Positions 10,777-20,388 of a stretch of DNA of 64,000 nt are shown piece after piece. The DNA comes from Leptolyngbyaceae cyanobacterium. GTDB lineage: Bacteria; Cyanobacteriota; Cyanobacteriia; Phormidesmidales; Phormidesmidaceae. The notes beneath the pieces were generated by a model. That model was given only the letters and a program-made list of their open reading frames with translations. It made no database searches and was not told where the DNA came from. The position numbers and the translations under genes were made by a program. Location of the stretch: assembly GCA_965263355.1 (NCBI GenBank), contig CBDHHL010000032.1, forward strand, positions 864,001 through 928,000. The letters run 5' to 3'. How positions within the stretch are numbered: the first letter of the stretch is position 1; each line of letters starts with the position of its first letter.

Positions 10777-11382
10777 TTGGTTATGCCTAAGGTTTTAGAT
10801 CCCCAAGCGAGTTATACCTTCCACTCATATTTCGAGATGCGGTACAACGTTGCTGATATCCTGGCAGATTTGGGGTTTAACTATGATCGACGTTATCTGA
10901 ATTTGCCTCAAAACGGACGTTCTCTTAATACCACACGCATTGAAGAAACTTTACAGCGTAATCTCCGCTATGCCGAACCGTCTAGCGAAGCAGCACGGCG
11001 CGAATTGTTGATTGCACCTGTTTTGGTAGAGCTGTGTGAACTGTTGGATGCCCGTTTGGATATTGAATACCCGATTAAGGTATCCAATTGGTTAAAGGGG
11101 TCAATTGATTATCGGGTAGTGACGGCCAATACGATCACGATTGTTGAAGCAAAGCAGGCAGACTTAACCCATGGGTTTGTACAACTGGCGGCGGAGTTGA
11201 TTGCGCTAGATAAGTGGATTGATGAAGATTTGCCGTTGTTGTATGGGGCAGTGACCACAGGAGAAGATTGGCGGTTTGGAATTTTAGATCGCGAAGCGAA
11301 ACAGGTCACCCAGGATATTGCCTTGTATCGTGCGCCTGAAAATGTAGAGACGTTATTGCGAGTATTGATGGCGGTTGCTTAG
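10777..11382 (+). CDS. PD-(D/E)XK-fold protein (HsdR N-terminal-like), cyanobacterial multicopy family
   Basis: SEAARRELLIAPVL...GSIDY...IVEAK...YGAVTTGEDWRFG. Confidence 0.7.
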   Translation: MVMPKVLDPQASYTFHSYFEMRYNVADILADLGFNYDRRYLNLPQNGRSLNTTRIEETLQRNLRYAEPSSEAARRELLIAPVLVELCELLDARLDIEYPIKVSNWLKGSIDYRVVTANTITIVEAKQADLTHGFVQLAAELIALDKWIDEDLPLLYGAVTTGEDWRFGILDREAKQVTQDIALYRAPENVETLLRVLMAVA

Positions 11383-11458: not shown

Positions 11459-12085
11459 ATGACACGTCCGCCAATTTTAGATAAAACTCAAAGCTATACA
11501 TTTAGCAAGTATTTTGAGCTAATGGCTGATCCGGAGGATATTTTTGCGGAGTTAGGGGCTAGCTTTAAAAAACAAGCCTTGCAATTACCGACTGCATCGG
11601 AGAAATTAGATTTCTTACCAGCTCTCGAAAAGAGACTTTTACAGACGCTTGAGTTGGTTGATTTAACGAGTGAAATGGCACGTCGTGAGACTCTGATTGC
11701 GCCTGTTTTATTAGAGGTTTGCGCACAAACCCATCAGCCGTTAAAAATTGAGTATGCAGTCGATGTCAGCAAATGGCTACGGGGTAGCTTGGATTATTTT
11801 ATTCCCGGTGCGCAAAATCTATTAATTATTGAGGCGAAACAGGCAGATTTGGCGCGAGGGTTTGTGCAACTAGGGGCAGAGTTGATTGCGCTAGATCAGT
11901 GGACGACATCGAATCAGCCTTTGCTGTACGGGGCGATTACAACGGGAGATGCCTGGAAATTTGGCTGTTTTGAACGGGCAGATAAAATACTACGGCAAGA
12001 TATTGGTTTGTATGCAGTCCCATCTGACTTAAAGCAGGTGGTGGCTATTTTACTCGGGATTATTCAAGGTCATGCGTCAGCGTAA
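11459..12085 (+). CDS. PD-(D/E)XK-fold protein, tandem paralog of 10777..11382
   Basis: SEMARRETLIAPVL...GSLDY...IIEAKQADL...YGAITTGDAWKFG. Confidence 0.7.
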   Translation: MTRPPILDKTQSYTFSKYFELMADPEDIFAELGASFKKQALQLPTASEKLDFLPALEKRLLQTLELVDLTSEMARRETLIAPVLLEVCAQTHQPLKIEYAVDVSKWLRGSLDYFIPGAQNLLIIEAKQADLARGFVQLGAELIALDQWTTSNQPLLYGAITTGDAWKFGCFERADKILRQDIGLYAVPSDLKQVVAILLGIIQGHASA

Positions 12086-12135: not shown

Positions 12136-12534
12136 CTACACCCAATTTTCAACAGTTAGTCCAGGTACACGGAGAAACTCTTTTTCATTGTTGGTAATCA
12201 AGTTAATACCTAGACTGAGTGCTTGAGCGGCGATCAGAAAATCTAAGGGGCCAATAGGTGTACCCTTTTTCTCAAGTTGAGCACGAATCGAGCCATAGGT
12301 TTGCGCAGCAGCCATGTCGAAATCGATGATTTCTAACGGTAGTAAAAACTGATCTAACGCAGCTTGATTTTTGTCTGGTTGCTGACTTTTTTGAGTGCCA
12401 TGGGTGAGTTCAGAGACGGTAATAGTAGACACGCCAATATCCCCAACTTCACAGGCTCGAAAACGGTCAAAAACTTCAGGTGGTTTACGTTTGATGATGT
12501 AGATGCAAATGTTGGTGTCGAGTAGATATTTCAT
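12136..12534 (-). CDS. vapC: VapC PIN-domain toxin
   Basis: MKYLLDTNICIY, GTPIGPLDFLIAAQA and LITNNEKEF. Confidence 0.95.
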   Translation of the reverse strand: MKYLLDTNICIYIIKRKPPEVFDRFRACEVGDIGVSTITVSELTHGTQKSQQPDKNQAALDQFLLPLEIIDFDMAAAQTYGSIRAQLEKKGTPIGPLDFLIAAQALSLGINLITNNEKEFLRVPGLTVENWV

Positions 12535-12657
12535 ACACCGTCTAAGTAGAAATGATGTGTCAGGCGTACCCTAGCCCCTCTGGGGCGACCGTGCCAACGA
12601 CTCCGCTCGGTAGTACGTTGGTTGCTAGCTTTGACTCCGCTCAGCTAGCAGACTTAT
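12535..12657. repeat. REP-like hairpin insert between vapB and vapC
   Basis: Two GACTCCGCTC-cored hairpins (CCAACG..CGTTGG; GCTAGC..GCTAGC) and GCCCC-TCT-GGGGC. Confidence 0.55.
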
Positions 12658-12891
12658 CTATTCAAATAGGTCTTCGCGTTCTTGATGTTCAGGCTGTTCT
12701 CGGTCTTCCATAAAGTCATCGGAAAATTGCTCGACGCTATCGATCAGTAACTGCCAGGGATTTTGGTAGGGCAGGAGTACTACGGCATTACCTACTCGTT
12801 TGATGTAAACCTGATCGCCTTCAAATCGAAATGATTTGGGTAACCGAACGGCTTGACTTTGACCATTTTGAAATAGTTTTGCTGTGTTCAT
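12658..12891 (-). CDS. vapB: VapB (AbrB/VagC-type) antitoxin
   Basis: TAKLFQNGQSQAVRLPKSFRFEG. Confidence 0.95.
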   Translation of the reverse strand: MNTAKLFQNGQSQAVRLPKSFRFEGDQVYIKRVGNAVVLLPYQNPWQLLIDSVEQFSDDFMEDREQPEHQEREDLFE

Positions 12892-12947
12892 AGTTGGGCT
12901 GAGTATATATTTTAAGTGTATATTTTCTATGGGTATTTGGTGTTTGA

Positions 12948-13070
12948 ATACCAGATCCGAGTTTATTAAACCCGATTAAAGATAGCCAACCCTGTGGGGG
13001 CATTGGGGATGCTCCATTTCTGTGTGGCTCTAATATTATGTGCCTGTAGGGGCATTGGGGATATCCTGAA
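12948..13070. repeat. Partial copy of the 847-953 element plus two CCTGTRGGGGCATTGGGGA units
   Basis: ATACCAGATCCGAGTTTATTAAACCCGATTAAA here versus ATACCAAATCCGAATTTATTAAACCCGATTAAA at 847. Confidence 0.75.
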
Positions 13071-13118
13071 ATATAGGCTTAAATAGAGGAAAATTGATGG
13101 TTCTTTTCCTGGAAAGTC

Positions 13119-15998
13119 GTGTCCCAATCTTTTTTTCTCGGTCGTACTCAAGAGCAAGATCAGTTTCGGCGGGTGCTGGAGCAATATGTGCCGCTGTCAT
13201 GGGCGCAGCGGCAGTTGCCAACCCTTTCGCGTCCCTTTACTAAGGTCCGTAGTCTGCCGGAGCACCCCTATATTTTCTTAGTGTACGGCCCAGGTGGTAT
13301 GGGTAAGACTACGTTGACCAAACGATTAACTTGGCTCGCGGATAAAGAATTTAAGCACCAATTTCAAACTGTTTTTCTAGACTGGGAGCGCGAACAAGGG
13401 CTAGAGCCACGGTTGCGGGAGGGATATGACAATATTCAGCCAGAAACAATACTTGATATTCTGCACAAGCAACTGGAAAAACAGCTTTCTAATTATACGG
13501 GTAAGACCTATAGTACAGCCCGTGAGAAGTTACGCGAAGTTGAAAGCAAGGTGGAAAAGGCACTACAAAGTCAGACACCAGAGCAGGGGCTGAATAATGA
13601 TGTACTGAAGTTAGGTGGAAAAGGCATTGCCTGGATTATTCGCCAGCAGACAGGGCTAAATCTGGTCAAACCAGAGGATATTGAACGGGTTCTTAAAGTA
13701 AGTGCTGAGGGACTACACCAGATAACACGATTTGTTGATAAAGCATTAGATTCAGAGGAGCGCATCTTATATCAACAACCCCATGAGCAGCTGGCTGAGA
13801 CCTTGGGGAAAGAAATTCAGAAAATTAGTCAGCGGCAATCACTTGTATTATTTCTGGATACTTACGAAATTGTAGATCGCCGAGCCTGTGACTATACGCT
13901 GCGTCAGGTGATCCGCACAGCTGGTAATAGAGCGATTTGGGTAATTTCAGGGCGTTCAAATTTAGCAGAGAGTGGGCGACGGGGAGATCGACCATTTAAT
14001 GGCTACAGTCGTGATTTTTCAGGAGATTGTTTATCGGTCAATAAACTAAACGAGTTTAGTCGTCAGGAGGTGAATGACTATTTTAACCATATGGTGCCAG
14101 ATAAACCTCTAGATGACGACCAAGCTCAAGCAGTTGCTGACTTTAGCCAAGGCATCCCATTTGTGGTGGATAGAGCGGCTGTGATGTATCGTGAAGGCAA
14201 GCCAATTGAAGAGATCGTTGAACCTGTTACCGCTGAGCTAGGAAAGACGACTGCCCGAGATGCAGTGATTCGAGCGACGTGTGAGCGTTTTTTAGTGCAT
14301 TGCTTTGAGCAATCAGATGAGGCAAATAAACAAAACGATCTGCGGGTAATTTATGCCTTAGCGATGATGCGTCGTCCCTATGCGGAGCTGCTGCGGGAGA
14401 TGGTAGACGAGGCGAACAGCCTGGAAAATCGACTGGAAATATTGCAGGAACGGTATGGATTTTTAGAAGTGGAAGAAATTCATCTAGATGAAAAGCTGGC
14501 TAACTTTTTGCGAGATTATTTGCGTCAAGAGGTCCGACGAACTGATCCATTAGTACAAGCAATTAATGAGACTGCCATCGCATGGTTAGATTTAAAGCTT
14601 GAGTCTACCAGTAAAGGCATTACGGATACGGCTGATTTATATACGGAAGAAAGTTTGTCCGAGCTGATGCTGGATCGGGTGCATCATGCATTTTGGCAAG
14701 GAGAAGAGACCTTTTGGCGTTATTTTGTACCTCGATTTATTGAGGCGTGGCAGTACAGCCAGACTTGGGCGCAGCGGGCACTAGAGGTGGCAGATACATT
14801 TGCGCTAAACAATAAAGATGGTCAAAAAAGGCTGCAGTGGATGGCGGCTGTCTTAAACAAGGAAACACGATTAGAGGCGACACCTAAATTATTAGATGAC
14901 CTGGTAAGAGTAGAACGCCGTCAATGGTTGCAGCCTGAACACAGTCTAATTTTGCAGTTTCAGCACGGGCGTTTGTATTACTTGCAAGATCAAAATCAGC
15001 TTGCTTTGAACAGCTACTCTAGTCTAGAAAATAAGTTGTTGTCAGACACCCAACAATTGAAACAAGATTTAGCTGAGGCACTCTATTTTCTTAGTGGAGA
15101 ATTTATTTGGCCGAATGGGGCTACAGACGCCGTTTATTCAGAACCTGGAGAAATTGCTATTCGAAACTCATTAGCATTGCATCCTAAGCCAATGAGTTCT
15201 TATTACTATCGTCAGGCAGCAGTTTTACATAGTGCAAAACGCTATACAGAGGCAGTTTCAAGTTTTAAACAAGCGATTCAAATTGATCCATCTGATGCAC
15301 AAAGCTACTATGGTTTGGGTGTAACGTACAACGCTCAGAAACGCTATGACGACGCGATCGCAAGTTACCAGAAAGCGATTGAGATAGACCCGTCCTATGC
15401 AACGGCTCACAACAATTTGGGGAGTACGTACAACGATCAGAAACGCTATGACGACGCGATCGCAAGTTACCAGAAAGCGATTGAGATAGACCCGTCCGAT
15501 GCAATGGCTCACAACAATTTGGGGAATACGTACAACGATCAGAAACGCTATGACGACGCGATCGCAAGTTACCAGAAAGCGATTGAGCTAGACCCGTCCT
15601 ATGCAACGGCTCACAACAATTTGGGGATTACGTACAACGCTCAGAAACGCTATGACGACGCGATCGCAAGTTACCAGAAAGCGATTGAGATAGACCCGTC
15701 CGATGCAAAGGCTCACTACAATTTGGGGATTACGTACAAAGCTCAGAAACGCTATGACGACGCGATCGCAAGTTACCAGAAAGCGATTGAGATAGACCCG
15801 TCCGATGCAATGGCTCACAACAATTTGGGGATTACGTACAATGATCAGAAACGCTATGACGACGCGATCGCAAGTTACCAGAAAGCGATTGAGCTAGACC
15901 CGTCCGATGCAAAGGCTCACAACAATTTGGGGATACGTACAACGCTCAGAAACGCTATGACGACGCGATCGCAAGTTACCAGAAAGCGATTGAGATAG
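13119..15998 (+). CDS. STAND-type P-loop NTPase with C-terminal TPR array (NLR-like); frameshifted at about 15933, intact gene would run to about 16947
   Basis: FLGR pre-motif, Walker A GPGGMGKT, Walker B LVLFLDTYE, GxP motif (QGIPF), followed by 34-aa TPRs. Confidence 0.85.
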   Translation: MSQSFFLGRTQEQDQFRRVLEQYVPLSWAQRQLPTLSRPFTKVRSLPEHPYIFLVYGPGGMGKTTLTKRLTWLADKEFKHQFQTVFLDWEREQGLEPRLREGYDNIQPETILDILHKQLEKQLSNYTGKTYSTAREKLREVESKVEKALQSQTPEQGLNNDVLKLGGKGIAWIIRQQTGLNLVKPEDIERVLKVSAEGLHQITRFVDKALDSEERILYQQPHEQLAETLGKEIQKISQRQSLVLFLDTYEIVDRRACDYTLRQVIRTAGNRAIWVISGRSNLAESGRRGDRPFNGYSRDFSGDCLSVNKLNEFSRQEVNDYFNHMVPDKPLDDDQAQAVADFSQGIPFVVDRAAVMYREGKPIEEIVEPVTAELGKTTARDAVIRATCERFLVHCFEQSDEANKQNDLRVIYALAMMRRPYAELLREMVDEANSLENRLEILQERYGFLEVEEIHLDEKLANFLRDYLRQEVRRTDPLVQAINETAIAWLDLKLESTSKGITDTADLYTEESLSELMLDRVHHAFWQGEETFWRYFVPRFIEAWQYSQTWAQRALEVADTFALNNKDGQKRLQWMAAVLNKETRLEATPKLLDDLVRVERRQWLQPEHSLILQFQHGRLYYLQDQNQLALNSYSSLENKLLSDTQQLKQDLAEALYFLSGEFIWPNGATDAVYSEPGEIAIRNSLALHPKPMSSYYYRQAAVLHSAKRYTEAVSSFKQAIQIDPSDAQSYYGLGVTYNAQKRYDDAIASYQKAIEIDPSYATAHNNLGSTYNDQKRYDDAIASYQKAIEIDPSDAMAHNNLGNTYNDQKRYDDAIASYQKAIELDPSYATAHNNLGITYNAQKRYDDAIASYQKAIEIDPSDAKAHYNLGITYKAQKRYDDAIASYQKAIEIDPSDAMAHNNLGITYNDQKRYDDAIASYQKAIELDPSDAKAHNNLGIRTTLRNAMTTRSQVTRKRLR

Positions 15999-16245
15999 AC
16001 CCGTCCGATGCAACGGCTCACAACAATTTGGGGATTACGTACAACGCTCAGAAACGCTATGACGACGCGATCGCAAGTTACCAGAAAGCGATTGAGATAG
16101 ACCCGTCCGATGCAACGGCTCACAACAATTTGGGGATTACGTACAACGCTCAGAAACGCTATGACGACGCGATCGCAAGTTACCAGAAAGCGATTGAGAT
16201 AGACCCGTCCGATGCAACGGCTCACAACAATTTGGGGAGTACGTA
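15324..16245 (+). repeat. About 9 near-identical 102-bp tandem repeats encoding TPR units, each with a HIP1 site
   Basis: GACGACGCGATCGCAAGTTACCAGAAAGCG occurs at 15348, 15450, 15552, 15654, 15756, 15858, 15959, 16061 and 16163. Confidence 0.97.
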
Positions 16246-16947
16246 TGAAGACGCTATGACGAAGCGATCGCTACCAAAAATTGAAGCTTATTGATTGAGC
16301 TCCCTATGCCTATCCTCATCGTAATTTAGGGGATGTTTATAAGGCACTTGAACAATATGAGGATGCGATCTCAAGTTACCAGAAAGCGATTGACTTAGAC
16401 CCTGACAAGCCTATTTTGAACTAGAATTAGGTAATGTATTGACCTATCACGGACAGTATGAGGATGCGATCTCAAGCTACCAAAAAGCCATTGAACTCAA
16501 TCCAGAATATGATTATGCCCATGATCGACTCGGCTGGGTTTCCTGTTAGATAATCAACTAGACAAGGCTAAACAAAGCTTTTGAGAAAGCTATTGAGATA
16601 GATGACAACAGATGTTAGTTCAAATTCAACTTAGTTATTTACCTACGACAAAACAATAACAATCTTGAAAAAGCACATGAACTATGGCAACAAGGCTTAG
16701 AATTAGTTGATGAAGATAGAGATTGGATAAAGCTCGTTCCCGTGCACTTTTACACATTTATCCTAGGCAAAAACAGAACAAGGCATGACTCATATGCAAT
16801 CCTAATAGTGCTAAGGTAGACATTGCAGCCTTAGAAAATGCCCTTGGCGATGCAGAAATCCTTGCCACCTGTCCTCAGCCCCCTGACCGCATCCAAGATA
16901 TGATTACCCTCCTCCGCAATGCCATCGCCCAACCATCAACCCAATAA
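15999..16947 (+). pseudogene. Out-of-frame continuation of the NTPase-TPR gene with multiple indels
   Basis: TPR fragments in shifting frames (HRNLGDVYKALEQYEDAISSYQKAIDLDP; GQYEDAISSYQKAIELNPEYDYAHDRLGW), ending ...LLRNAIAQPSTQ* at 16947. Could be sequencing error. Confidence 0.65.
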
Positions 16948-17101
16948 AACGATGAATGTCGAATTCATTGGGTTGATCAAAGCACAGGCAACAGCAAAGA
17001 TTTTGGTAGGGTAGCAACCCAACCTACACATACTGCATTCTAAATTCCCATCTGTTAAAATTACCGATTACCCCTCCCCCCAACATTTCACAATTTGTTT
17101 C

Positions 17102-17130
17102 TTGACTCCCTAGATCAACTGCTCTACCGT
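17102..17130 (+). promoter_or_regulatory. Sigma70-type promoter TTGACT-N17-TACCGT overlapped by the imperfect palindrome TAGATCAACTGCTCTA (possible LexA-like operator)
   Basis: Hexamers and spacing read directly; the operator identity is inference. Confidence 0.5.
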
Positions 17131-17164
17131 AAACAACAGGTCCACGAGACCTTCAGAACTCAAC

Positions 17165-17245
17165 CCCTTAGCGCTATCGACAGGTGCTACCAACACCCAC
17201 CGACAGCTAACCTAGCAAGCTGAACCAGCCAGCTTGAAGGCTAAT
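17165..17245 (-). ncRNA. Putative cis-antisense small RNA (about 80 nt)
   Basis: Minus-strand promoter TTGCAA-N16-TACATT (17277-17250). Hairpin GCUGUCG..GGUGUU-GGU-AGCACC..CGAUAGC needs G-U pairs available only on the minus strand. Confidence 0.4.
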
Positions 17246-17369
17246 GTTAAATGTACCTTAGCCCTTCCAGTTTGCAACCCTTGCAGGACGGCTAAGGCTT
17301 GAGTTTTGGTCCATAGGCCAGGTAAACCATTACCTGGCCACCTATCCACCTACAAAAACGACCAAAACC

Positions 17370-17615
17370 ATGTTCCAAGACAACACCCAGGGCGCAGACG
17401 CGGCCAACATCCCCCCTGCCGCCAATACTCTCCCCGACCACCAGTTTGACATCGTCCGACACACCCTGTTCGGCACCCTAGACGCCGTCCAAAACACCAT
17501 CAAACTCCTCCACAAACTCAACTACGCCGACCCCAACGACTGGAGCCGCCCCCTACCCACCGGACGCGTCAACGAAGTCATGGCCATCTTGACCAAACGC
17601 GTCCGCGTAGACTAA
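17370..17615 (+). CDS. Small hypothetical protein (81 aa), resembling a multicopy cyanobacterial family
   Basis: ATG after an A-rich leader; VRHTLFG...TIKLLHKLNYA...WSRPLP...EVMAILTK pattern recalled from other cyanobacteria; followed by a GTAG hairpin. Confidence 0.75.
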   Translation: MFQDNTQGADAANIPPAANTLPDHQFDIVRHTLFGTLDAVQNTIKLLHKLNYADPNDWSRPLPTGRVNEVMAILTKRVRVD

Positions 17616-17628
17616 TTCAAGACCTATC

Positions 17629-17662
17629 CCAGTAGGGACATTGCCTGCAATGCCCCTACTGG
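17629..17662. repeat. GTAG-type REP hairpin / terminator
   Basis: CCAGTAGGGACATTGC-CT-GCAATGCCCCTACTGG. Confidence 0.7.
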
Positions 17663-17738
17663 CAAACCCGTGGCATAGCCCCAGTAGCACGCCTATCCCT
17701 CACATTCGCCCAGATCGCTCTGAACGATTACCTGAGGC

Positions 17739-18539
17739 CTAAATCGCCTGCACAATTAAATCAACCGCACGCGGCTTACCAAAGGCAGCATGGTATCGGG
17801 TATAGTCCCCCGGCTGCTCGATGGTGCCCAGTTCTCGGTAAGTACCGCCAGCCCCTTCAATCAGCGCCTTAGTCGCAGCAATATCCCAAATCTTGAGGTT
17901 ATATTCGACCATTACCGCAACAGCACCGCGAATAGCGAGACCATGGGCATAAACATCGTAGTAAATGCGAGAATGAGGGTGAAACCGCAGAACCTTCCAT
18001 AAAACATCCGTATTGCCCCCGCGCTCAAACGTCGCTGGACAGTTGGTGGCAATAATATCCGTCGATGTTAGGGCAGGGCTTTCAAGATCGAGCAGTTGAA
18101 TCTGTTTACCATTGCGATAAGTGCCACAGGGTAAGCCCCCACGAAAACTCTCGCCCAATACCGGAAAATCAATCCACCCGAGGACAGGGTTACCTTGGTA
18201 CAACAGACCGATAATGGTGCCAAAGGTGGGAATCCGATTGATGAGATTTTGCGTGCCATCAATCGGATCAATGGTCCAAACAAACTCGGCGTCGCCATTT
18301 TCAGTGCCGTATTCTTCGCCAATGATGCCATGGTGCGGATAATGTTTACGGATTAGCGTCCGGGCTAATTCTTCGCACTTGAGGTCAACTTCACTGACTG
18401 GGGTGTTGTCCGCTTTGATTTGGGTACTAAAAGAGTTATCTTGCCACAACGTCAGAATCAGCTCACGGGTCTGGCTAAGCAGATCATCACCGACGCTCAG
18501 CAACTCCTGGTAGAAATCGTTTCCTGGTTGGTCCTTCAT
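17739..18539 (-). CDS. Inositol monophosphatase family protein (histidinol-phosphatase HisN-like)
   Basis: KADNTPVSEVD, GIIGEE, WTIDPIDGT and LKIWDIAA. Confidence 0.85.
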   Translation of the reverse strand: MKDQPGNDFYQELLSVGDDLLSQTRELILTLWQDNSFSTQIKADNTPVSEVDLKCEELARTLIRKHYPHHGIIGEEYGTENGDAEFVWTIDPIDGTQNLINRIPTFGTIIGLLYQGNPVLGWIDFPVLGESFRGGLPCGTYRNGKQIQLLDLESPALTSTDIIATNCPATFERGGNTDVLWKVLRFHPHSRIYYDVYAHGLAIRGAVAVMVEYNLKIWDIAATKALIEGAGGTYRELGTIEQPGDYTRYHAAFGKPRAVDLIVQAI

Positions 18540-19755: not shown

Positions 19756-20388
19756 ATGCTCCAAAGTCTAGCCATTTCTAAGAATATTCTGACAATGGCA
19801 GCTGTCCAAAAGCGGTTTGGCATAGTACCCAGTCCAGACCCAAAATTCTTTGCAGAATGGGTAAACGATTTACCTGAATTAACGTCTTTGGAAATAGATA
19901 CCCTTGACCAAATTAAGGCTAGATTTGATCGCCACAGAAATCAGGGACCGCTTGCCGAAGGCACGATTAATCAACTCCTGATTTCCCCTCTTCTTACCTT
20001 GGCCGCTCTGTACGATGAACCCTTTTTTGTCTCCACAGAGCCGAGTTTAGCAATCGAACTAAAAGACCAGGACGAAATCCTACGCGGACGGATTGATACG
20101 CTGATTGTTCAGCATCAGTTTTGGGTACTGGTGATTGAGTCTAAGTCAACCATTGCGTTTTCAATCGCCCTTCCTCAAGCAATGACGTATATGATGGCTA
20201 ACCCTCATCCAGAGCGTCCAGTTTATGGCCTCATTACCAATGGTGATGAGTTTATGTTTATTAAAATGTTGACCCAAGGGTTGCCTCAATACGATCTCTC
20301 TAATGTCTTCTCGTTAATCATCCCGCGCCGTAATCAACTGTATGAGATTCTCCAAATTCTCAAGCAAATTTGTCAGGTTATGAGTTAG
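19756..20388 (+). CDS. Type I restriction HsdR N-terminal-like PD-(D/E)XK protein
   Basis: RGRIDTL...LVIESK...PQAMTYM...YGLITNGDEFMF. Confidence 0.75.
   Translation: MLQSLAISKNILTMAAVQKRFGIVPSPDPKFFAEWVNDLPELTSLEIDTLDQIKARFDRHRNQGPLAEGTINQLLISPLLTLAALYDEPFFVSTEPSLAIELKDQDEILRGRIDTLIVQHQFWVLVIESKSTIAFSIALPQAMTYMMANPHPERPVYGLITNGDEFMFIKMLTQGLPQYDLSNVFSLIIPRRNQLYEILQILKQICQVMS

Follow-up and report, generated by a model that had tools for sequence, protein, structure and literature searches.

A STAND-class ATPase–TPR gene with a homogenised repeat array, interrupted as assembled, in a cyanobacterium of the Leptolyngbyaceae

In fungal NOD-like receptors (NLRs), repeat number is polymorphic and positive selection acts on the concave side of the tetratricopeptide repeats (TPRs) (Dyrka et al. 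2014, PMC4986451); many of these genes are pseudogenes, some are intact only in certain strains, and the repeats of the pseudogenes are nearly intact (Ament-Velasquez and Saupe 2026, PMC13449251), as far as the accessible portions of both papers describe it. Here we describe a gene of related build in a Leptolyngbyaceae cyanobacterium (GenBank assembly GCA_965263355.1), located at positions 13119 to 16947 of a 64,000-nucleotide stretch of contig CBDHHL010000032.1 (positions 864,001 to 928,000), which is called the window below and to which all coordinates refer. The gene joins a nucleoside triphosphatase (NTPase) module, assigned at the fold level to the signal transduction ATPases with numerous domains (STAND), to an array of nearly identical 102-bp TPR units. 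On balance, we regard it as probably a lineage-specific, damaged copy of a family of stand-alone STAND-class ATPase–TPR proteins, in which the array is subject to homogenisation together with diversification of the binding face.

The likeness to fungal NLRs, such as the Podospora NB-ARC/TPR protein Pa_2_10340 and the NWD/HET-E family, includes the order of the domains, an NTPase followed by TPRs, and repeat units that are more than 85% identical. By the same accessible accounts, it further includes a variable repeat number (here between relatives), variable sites on the concave face and damaged copies that keep homogeneous repeats. The preliminary description of this DNA had invoked a fungal precedent of conserved internal repeats under diversifying selection, in agreement with the available text of Dyrka et al. 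2014 (PMC4986451). Unlike fungal NLRs, the family described here has no N-terminal effector domain, its NTPase is not a Pfam NB-ARC or NACHT domain, no swapping of units from locus to locus was observed in the genomes of two relatives, and the host is a bacterium, without repeat-induced point mutation.

Comparable repeats are known from bacteria. Bacterial NLRs with WD and TPR repeats of 80–90% internal identity are reported in the accessible part of a preprint (Dyrka et al. 2020, 10.1101/2020.01.06.895854), diverse hotspot sites are described for highly repetitive prokaryotic WD40 proteins (Hu et al. 2017, PMC5587647, as partly available), and NLR-like proteins with internally conserved repeats are found in every domain of life, Cyanobacteria included (PMC13449251, section 12). 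Repeats of high internal conservation in cyanobacterial NLR-like proteins are thus already in print (2020, 2026), and the lists of internally conserved bacterial proteins in the supplements of PMC13449251 or PMC5587647 might include the present family. It shares with the published bacterial NLR-like WD/TPR proteins the hosts (filamentous cyanobacteria and Chloroflexi), the architecture and the proposal of rapid diversification, but differs in having neither the amyloid motif nor the Bell partner described there. Homogenised repeats are not mentioned in the accessible portion of Kaur et al. 2020 (PMC7159879). No codon-level test on bacterial TPR arrays was found in the literature searched, which extended to neither supplements nor subscription papers.

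Three further systems resemble parts of the protein. The transcriptional regulator MalT and the archaeal protein of Protein Data Bank (PDB) entry 6mfv likewise combine a STAND NTPase, a helical arm and a TPR-like sensor, but sequence identity to either is only 11–18%, and MalT has a LuxR DNA-binding output domain and no homogenised repeats. Avs proteins also pair a STAND NTPase with a TPR-like sensor, and Avs3 and Avs5 are among the fold matches; according to the accessible text of PMC13581612, they bind a protein ligand and then oligomerise, their N-terminal effectors include nucleases, SIR2 domains and further types, and the sensors wrap around conserved phage proteins, whereas the family described here carries no effector. 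A PADLOC match to Avs was not found for the protein encoded in the window. Designed consensus TPRs (CTPRs; 8bu0, 1na0, 2fo7) align to the array without gaps, but in these designs the binding-face positions are held constant, whereas here a natural gene has units that vary precisely there.

The 102-bp array and its variable sites

The array (Table 1) consists of units that are more alike at the DNA level than the approximately 85% identity by which internally conserved repeats are defined. In the window, a 42-base core shared by these units is present in nine exact copies, all within the array, with none expected from 100 shuffles, and exact matching of this core found no unit elsewhere in the window. 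In the canonical TPR register, units begin at 15399 + 102k. This register is supported by the Pfam TPR_1 model, whose positions 1–34 fall on residues 863–896 (nt 15705–15806), and agrees with the gapless alignment of the array to solved CTPR chains (8bu0, E 2e-81), in which the unit retains L7, G8, Y11, A20, Y24, A27 and P32. Over the whole protein, TPR_1 matches seven stretches (E 3e-83), and the superstructure-forming C-terminal repeats are present.

Within the eight core units in this register, 7 of the 102 nucleotide columns are variable. The codons affected in the array are 2 (T/M/K), 5 (N/Y), 9 (I/S/N), 12 (N/K), 13 (A/D), 30 (I/L) and 34 (D/Y), with a sole synonymous change, AAC/AAT at codon 12. 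The unit alignment thereby bears out the preliminary description, which had reported about nine repeats of 102 bp varying only at these codons, a single silent AAC/AAT change and different combinations of alleles among the repeats. For the codon pairs 13/34 and 30/34, all four allele combinations are present among the units, which requires recombination between units or recurrent mutation. The differences between units are isolated single-base changes rather than blocks of the kind left by conversion tracts.

The most variable TPR positions are 2, 5, 9, 12, 13, 33 and 34, all exposed on the concave, ligand-binding face according to the available text of Magliery and Regan 2005 (PMC1261162), and are the same seven that the preliminary description had listed as hypervariable. 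Six of the seven variable codons of the window array belong to this set (hypergeometric P 3.5e-5), as do eight of its nine non-synonymous alleles (P 3e-5). On the other hand, the ratio of nine non-synonymous to one synonymous allele in the window array is not distinguishable from the neutral expectation (P 0.33); the non-random feature of the array is the placement of the changes, not the scarcity of silent ones. Each array unit also contains the octamer GCGATCGC, which we take to be HIP1, the highly iterated palindrome of cyanobacteria. Minus-strand open reading frames (ORFs) within the array (for example, 15265–15606) are periodic by-products of the repeat.

The same site pattern is found across the family. 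A search of 5.8 billion proteins yielded 53 relatives, and alignment-based scans located 69 family loci in species genomes and 53 in metagenomes (loci and proteins are designated L and P below); a scan of contigs with a single protein query found no relative. Many relatives have homogenised 102-bp arrays of their own, including L011 (9.6 copies at 97%), L027 (98%) and L008 (97%). Units were placed in the same register and grouped per locus at a nucleotide identity of at least 90% with at least three units, giving 16 distinct arrays, the window excluded. At the seven concave-face positions, these arrays carry 109 non-synonymous and 6 synonymous alleles, compared with 74 and 60 at the other 27 positions (odds ratio 14.7, Fisher P 1.7e-13). 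With the identity threshold at 85%, which yields 27 arrays, the counts are 216:15 within the set and 167:141 elsewhere (P 6e-26). The in-set ratio of non-synonymous to synonymous alleles also lies above the neutral 0.78 (P 5e-7), and synonymous alleles within the set are confined to positions 5 and 34, while elsewhere they are spread over the unit. What speaks against taking these P values as more than rough is that the counts are of alleles and not of independent events, and that the repeat alignment ignores recombination. The direction of the concave-face excess across the family arrays is unambiguous.

Close relatives also differ by the gain and loss of units. The protein P0002 and the frame of L070 are identical at 819 of 820 positions and differ by exactly one 34-residue unit, while P0003 and P0004, 95.8% identical, differ by 170 residues, or five units. 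In the genomes that hold L011 and L003 (9.4 and 6.8 Mb), no second locus with the array's own unit was found. In these two genomes, homogenisation therefore takes place within a single array, unlike in the Podospora family of loci, and the donor pool in trans for which the preliminary description had proposed a search was not detected there. Together, the concave-face excess and the repeat-number differences fit concerted evolution with diversifying selection. Of the earlier idea of a variable receptor reshuffled by recombination, these two features uphold the variability in the relatives; the window copy itself is interrupted and decayed.

The NTPase module and its class

The STAND class of NTPases is said to have been defined by Leipe, Koonin and Aravind in 2004. 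The features found here are a Walker A and a Walker B motif, a conserved arginine after strand 4, and a nucleotide-binding domain followed by helical and winged-helix parts in a fold like that of Apaf-1, CED-4 and MalT. Across 33–35 relatives, conservation extends to the FLGRxxE helix and to a GRSNL motif (GR(S)NL) with the invariant R279, after which the helical and winged-helix-like parts follow; approximately 130 residues of inserted helices separate Walker A from Walker B. An AlphaFold2 model built with 35 relatives has a predicted local distance difference test (pLDDT) score of 85 and a predicted template modelling score of 0.74. Foldseek against the PDB matched this model to MalT (8bob, E 1e-6), the archaeal STAND–TPR protein 6mfv (2e-5), Apaf-1 (2e-4) and CED-4 (4e-4), with further matches to Cdc6, Avs3, Avs5 and Dark. 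VIA-align over residues 1–484 returned BrxC (Z 15.6), Cdc6/Orc1 (14.9), MalT (13.8) and plant NLRs (12–13), along with the archaeal ATPases 2fna and 2qen, so that Cdc6/Orc1 and BrxC score as high as or above MalT and the plant NLRs.

In the family databases, the N-terminal sequence of the window copy reaches no cut-off of Pfam, NCBIfam or PADLOC. The N-terminal 694 residues stay below the Pfam cut-offs for AAA_16 (19.8 bits against 32.6), nSTAND5 (18.6 against 34), NACHT (17.8 against 26.7) and NB-ARC (16.0 against 23.5). No PADLOC model matches residues 1–694 at E below 1e-3, the whole protein drawing only generic TPR models, and NCBIfam returns only a sub-threshold match to the Sll1717 family (18.6 bits against a cut-off of 75). 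The Pfam matches of the N-terminal part, all sub-threshold, are confined to the P-loop region of many ATPase models, and a search of PDB sequences with the N-terminal 627 residues gave matches at the P-loop level only (best E 1e-3); precomputed PF13191 matches are present on several relatives. According to the predicted structure, then, the N-terminal 694 residues are a STAND-class NTPase at the fold level, similar to MalT, Apaf-1 and Cdc6, and not a Pfam NACHT or NB-ARC protein. The preliminary description had called the product an NLR-like STAND–TPR receptor. The P-loop STAND architecture, the fold and the TPRs agree with this; since the NACHT and NB-ARC cut-offs are not reached, 'NLR-like' is valid for architecture and fold only, and the copy as assembled is damaged.

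An N-terminal effector domain, whose absence had been noted before, is lacking not only in the window copy, where only about 50 residues precede Walker A, but throughout the relatives that could be assessed. A candidate start lies at most 24 codons upstream of FLGRxxE in 48 of the 48 loci in which the motif was found, which indicates a family without an N-terminal effector. The receptor function and the output in trans that the preliminary description had proposed are inferences. The parts of the protein differ in their closest relatives. The C-terminal cap (16500–16947) is identical to P0006 at 88 of 142 positions and to P0002 at 77 of 141, while for the NTPase part identity is 83% with P0002 and only approximately 47% with P0006. 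These comparisons hint that the sensor with its cap and the NTPase module may have different histories, as in a mosaic formed by recombination.

Interruption of the reading frame and probable decay of the 3′ end

The preliminary description had treated 13119–16947 as one continuous gene. The frame, however, stops at 15998, and the tail beyond it requires about seven more frame changes and contains two stops. Because one base is missing in the unit at 15909–16009, where GGGGATACG replaces the GGGGATTACG of all other units, the frame shifts and ends at the stop codon 15996–15998. The two full units that follow outside the frame (16010–16111 and 16112–16213) do not differ from one another and both have the consensus sequence. 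In the tail, a 7-base deficit at approximately 16245–16250 is followed by in-frame stops at 16282 and 16616 and by frame changes near 16301, 16423, 16542, 16579, 16769 and 16803. Nine lesions were counted in all, every one within the last 1013 of 3829 bases (P 6e-6), and the first 2.8 kb have none. A pattern search for the C-terminal signature proved uninformative for scoring intactness across loci.

The window copy retains every residue that is invariant across 33–35 relatives, and over the first 600 codons, dN/dS against L070, its closest relative at the DNA level, is 0.05–0.11, a value compatible with a recent death of the gene since dS is approximately 1 and near saturation. There is a documented case of natural decay of this gene at the corresponding syntenic site: in Leptolyngbya sp. 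PCC 7375, only a 245-residue remnant (L036) lies beside the homologue of the pair of a PIN-domain gene and its partner ORF that flanks the window gene.

To assess the lesions, public contigs from four sequencing runs, none of them on record as RNA, were placed on positions 15250–17000; they do not span the array. Contigs of 'organism A' (runs X1–X3) match the flanks 15250–15351 and 16919–17000 without differences. No run covers 15781–15839 or 16607–16783, and 16253–16311 has almost no cover. Among the pieces listed, which end at 15924 and 15931, none bridges the missing base at about 15935. Within the array, contig differences at 15600 and 15607 fall on TPR positions 34 and 2; these contigs fit several units equally well and were left uncounted.

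Some of this evidence weighs against real damage. The tail is covered by public contigs only as variants of 96–97% identity, and runs X1–X3 yielded no contig that carries the tail as it stands in the window. The only contig over 16473–16575 (run X1) carries two base differences and an extra A behind 16541; this base restores the family frame to read GWVYLLDNQLDKAKQSF, where P0006 has GWVYLLYDQLDKAQQSF, and a frame-preserving version of the lesion near 16542 therefore exists in public data. Some or all of the lesions could accordingly reflect a poor consensus or a different allele. The gene might then be intact in the organism, the 1-bp deletion and the frame changes of the tail being long-read or mixed-strain consensus errors, an alternative that we consider unlikely, although of appreciable weight. 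The position of the gene on a 3.9-Mb contig suggests a long-read assembly, and a loose contig end before 16831 in run X3 encodes TIESGASISA, resembling the TIEAGASVAA of the family. Similarly, two other homogenised family arrays contain unit spacings one base off a whole unit, at 101 and 103 bases (L011 in Leptolyngbya sp. PCC 7375, 10806/10907; L062 in a metagenome-assembled genome of Chloroflexia, 10259/10362), which reflects either frequent breakage or frequent misassembly.

Against consensus errors stands, first, that no interruption is apparent in the window's other 44 long frames, so that such errors would have to be limited to 1 kb here. Homopolymer slips do not account for several of the lesions, among them the 7-base deficit at 16245–16250 and multi-base gaps near 16301, and the remnant in PCC 7375 demonstrates that decay happens at this site. 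Furthermore, the variant contigs also carry substitutions (16534, 16887 and 16918), and their divergence from the window implied for 16607–16783 exceeds 5%. The substitutions at 16887 and 16918, where X1 has two alleles, suggest that the contigs stem from a second allele or strain and are not a cleaner read. We hold the lesions to be quite probably real damage.

With an interruption inside the array and a decayed 3′ end, the window copy, as its sequence reads, does not qualify as a functioning receptor. We take it to be a truncated gene, a pseudogene or, in part, a problem of assembly. What remains would at best be a truncated protein of 959 residues in which the NTPase module is intact and about seven TPRs are kept, and it is possibly a pseudogene.

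Locus context, competing explanations and meaning

Family members are hosted by filamentous cyanobacteria (Leptolyngbya, Leptothoe, Pseudanabaena and Geitlerinema), Chloroflexi, a few Acidobacteria and one myxobacterium. The window locus is syntenic with L001, L003, L036 and L070. Nucleotide identity to the syntenic loci is 79–86% in the left flank and 82–85% in the right flank, compared with 63–72%, in patches only, between the NTPase part and L003, and with L001 only the first 61 bases of this part can be aligned. The flanks are thus more alike than the NTPase part, which indicates that the STAND gene evolves faster than its surroundings. Among the 69 family loci, with the window compared too, no neighbouring gene was common to more than five, and no conserved defence neighbour was found. 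PADLOC found no defence system beside the gene, its only matches there being three paralogs of the PD-(D/E)xK type that belong to no Pfam family at E 1e-3. Besides the PIN pair, the immediate context includes metabolic genes.

Table 1. Positions of the gene's parts and of neighbouring features in the window
Feature	Position	Strand	Remarks
Present open frame, GTG start, 959 aa	13119–15998	+	Encodes the NTPase module, the helical arm and TPRs; 21 out-of-frame residues precede the stop
Nucleotide-binding oligomerisation module, residues 1 to ~484	13119–14570	+	Invariant columns; AlphaFold2 model; fold matches over 1–484
Walker A, GPGGMGKT, residues 57–64	13287–13310	+	Invariant or nearly so in 33–35 relatives
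Walker B-like, LDTYEIVD, residues 246–253	13854–13877	+	Invariant or nearly so in 33–35 relatives
All-helical arm, residues ~485–692	14571–15194	+	pLDDT >90; matches helical repeat proteins only
Two older TPRs ahead of the array	15195–15398	+	Second (15297–15398) a hybrid whose last 75 bases are already homogenised unit
Homogenised TPR array	15324–16245	+	Tandem Repeats Finder: period 102, 9.0 copies, 96% matches
One missing base	15934–15936	+	GGGGATACG here, GGGGATTACG in all other units; unit 15909–16009
Array units past the stop, outside the gene's frame	15999–16244	+	Two full units, then a partial one
Decayed 3′ part	16245–16947	+	Homology to another two TPRs and to the C-terminal cap conserved in the family, which ends ...ATCPQPPDRIQDMITLLRNAIAQPSTQ
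PIN-domain (VapC-like) gene	12136–12534	-	Divergent, left of the STAND gene
Small partner ORF of the PIN gene	12658–12891	-	Upstream of the PIN gene; pair at the same place in L001, L036, L070
Conserved element, right flank	17038–17615		Comprises 17038–17369 and ORF 17370–17615
81-aa ORF, MFQDNTQG...LFGTLDAVQNTIKLLHKLNYADPNDWSRPLPTGRVNEVMAILTKRVRVD	17370–17615	+	Conserved in L001, L003; third-codon-position bias 24/15/9
Three ~200-aa paralogs, PADLOC PD_DExK nuclease model	10777–11382, 11459–12085, 19756–20388	+	E 5e-26, 3e-25, 2e-6

Two flanking elements stand out by their conservation. At the 5′ end, the window copy, L001, L003 and L070 have in common a GTG start and an N-terminus that reads MSQS(S)FFLGRTQEQ. 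A purine-rich AGAGGA box and an ATG 22 bases upstream of this GTG, in another frame, open a 48-codon ORF (13097–13243, + strand), which runs into the beginning of the STAND gene. Across the syntenic loci L001, L003 and L070 there is hardly any change in the box, in the ATG or in about 50 bases upstream, and the ORF is possibly a regulatory upstream ORF. To the right, the approximately 330 bases at 17038–17369 directly precede the small conserved ORF, are 82–85% identical to L001 and L003 and are more conserved than the STAND gene. When its variable sites are counted by phase (29/24/23), no codon periodicity emerges in this segment, which contains an obvious hairpin and may be a conserved leader or an RNA not yet described. 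A search of Rfam over 12400–17800, which includes it, gave no match at E ≤0.1, and the 81-residue ORF has no Pfam or PADLOC family. Promoter-like and terminator-like sites occur at chance level (8 against 8.2 expected and 5 against 4.5).

By analogy with MalT, Apaf-1 and Avs proteins, a ligand would bind the concave face of the TPR solenoid, and binding would free the NTPase module for ATP-dependent oligomerisation; this scheme is established for these proteins, as far as the accessible text of PMC13581612 describes it. Within the array, whole 102-bp units would be duplicated or deleted through unequal recombination or slippage, a turnover that would keep them 96–100% identical, while selection would retain amino-acid differences at the concave-face positions 2, 5, 9, 12, 13 and 34. 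Unequal recombination within the array would also create new combinations of binding-face residues. In this genome, a 1-bp deletion in the seventh unit would have ended the frame at 15998, leaving a last 700 bp full of frame changes.

Rather than an immune-type receptor of variable ligands, the family could be a housekeeping ATP-dependent scaffold or regulator, for example a MalT-like switch without the DNA-binding domain, with TPRs that bind a conserved cellular partner. We consider this rather improbable. It is consistent with MalT as the best fold match, with the lack of an effector domain, of a PADLOC family for the NTPase part and of a conserved defence neighbour in 69 loci, and with the metabolic genes around the locus. 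A conserved partner, however, leaves unexplained the excess of amino-acid variation on the binding face, the gain and loss of units between alleles that are 96–99.9% identical, the frequent decay, and the faster divergence of the gene (flanks at 80–85% against L001 and L003, the NTPase part at 63–72% in patches). A bolder proposal, to which we give little credence, would make the effector-less family a bacterial counterpart of the hypervariable fungal NLRs that is retuned inside one array, by duplication and loss of units together with selected point changes, without a donor pool. The damaged copy would then be alive, with the out-of-frame units as a silent reserve from which recombination could return units to the translated part, or the single-base shift as an on/off or length switch, and the 959-residue protein would signal through a partner encoded elsewhere.

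It is very improbable that the array is a very recent neutral amplification in which the few differences arose by random mutation or survive from older repeats, without selection for diversity. The 9:1 ratio in the window alone does fit the neutral expectation, and Hu et al. 2017 (PMC5587647), in the text accessible, read high internal identity mainly as young age. Neutral amplification nevertheless fails to account for the placement of changes, non-random in the window (P ~3e-5) as in the 16 other arrays, for the 6 synonymous against 109 non-synonymous alleles at the set positions while silent changes are scattered across the remaining positions, and for differences that are isolated single bases without conversion-tract blocks. 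A targeted mutator such as a diversity-generating retroelement, a type of element that diversifies putative sensors in multicellular bacteria (PMC10907252, accessible part), is scarcely credible as the writer of the variable sites, as all units vary mutually instead of one variable copy differing from one template, and the changes (C>T, C>A, A>T, T>G, T>A, G>T and A>C) show no adenine bias, only 2 of 10 being at adenines.

For the DNA described here, the pattern seen in the repeats is genuine and holds up statistically; its reading as a receptor is right in kind but goes too far for a copy that is either frameshifted and decayed or misassembled. The annotation of such arrays calls for caution: frames break in them and assemblies fail, and a 'receptor' read straight from DNA may therefore be a pseudogene. 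The analysis also marks out a widespread family that has no effector domain and no fixed neighbour. The codon-level evidence from 16 arrays of cyanobacteria, Chloroflexi and other phyla indicates that bacterial STAND–TPR sensors share the regime of fungal NLRs, in which recombination keeps units near-identical and binding-face residues are kept different. For bacteria, this regime had previously been stated mainly as an expectation in the accessible parts of the literature.

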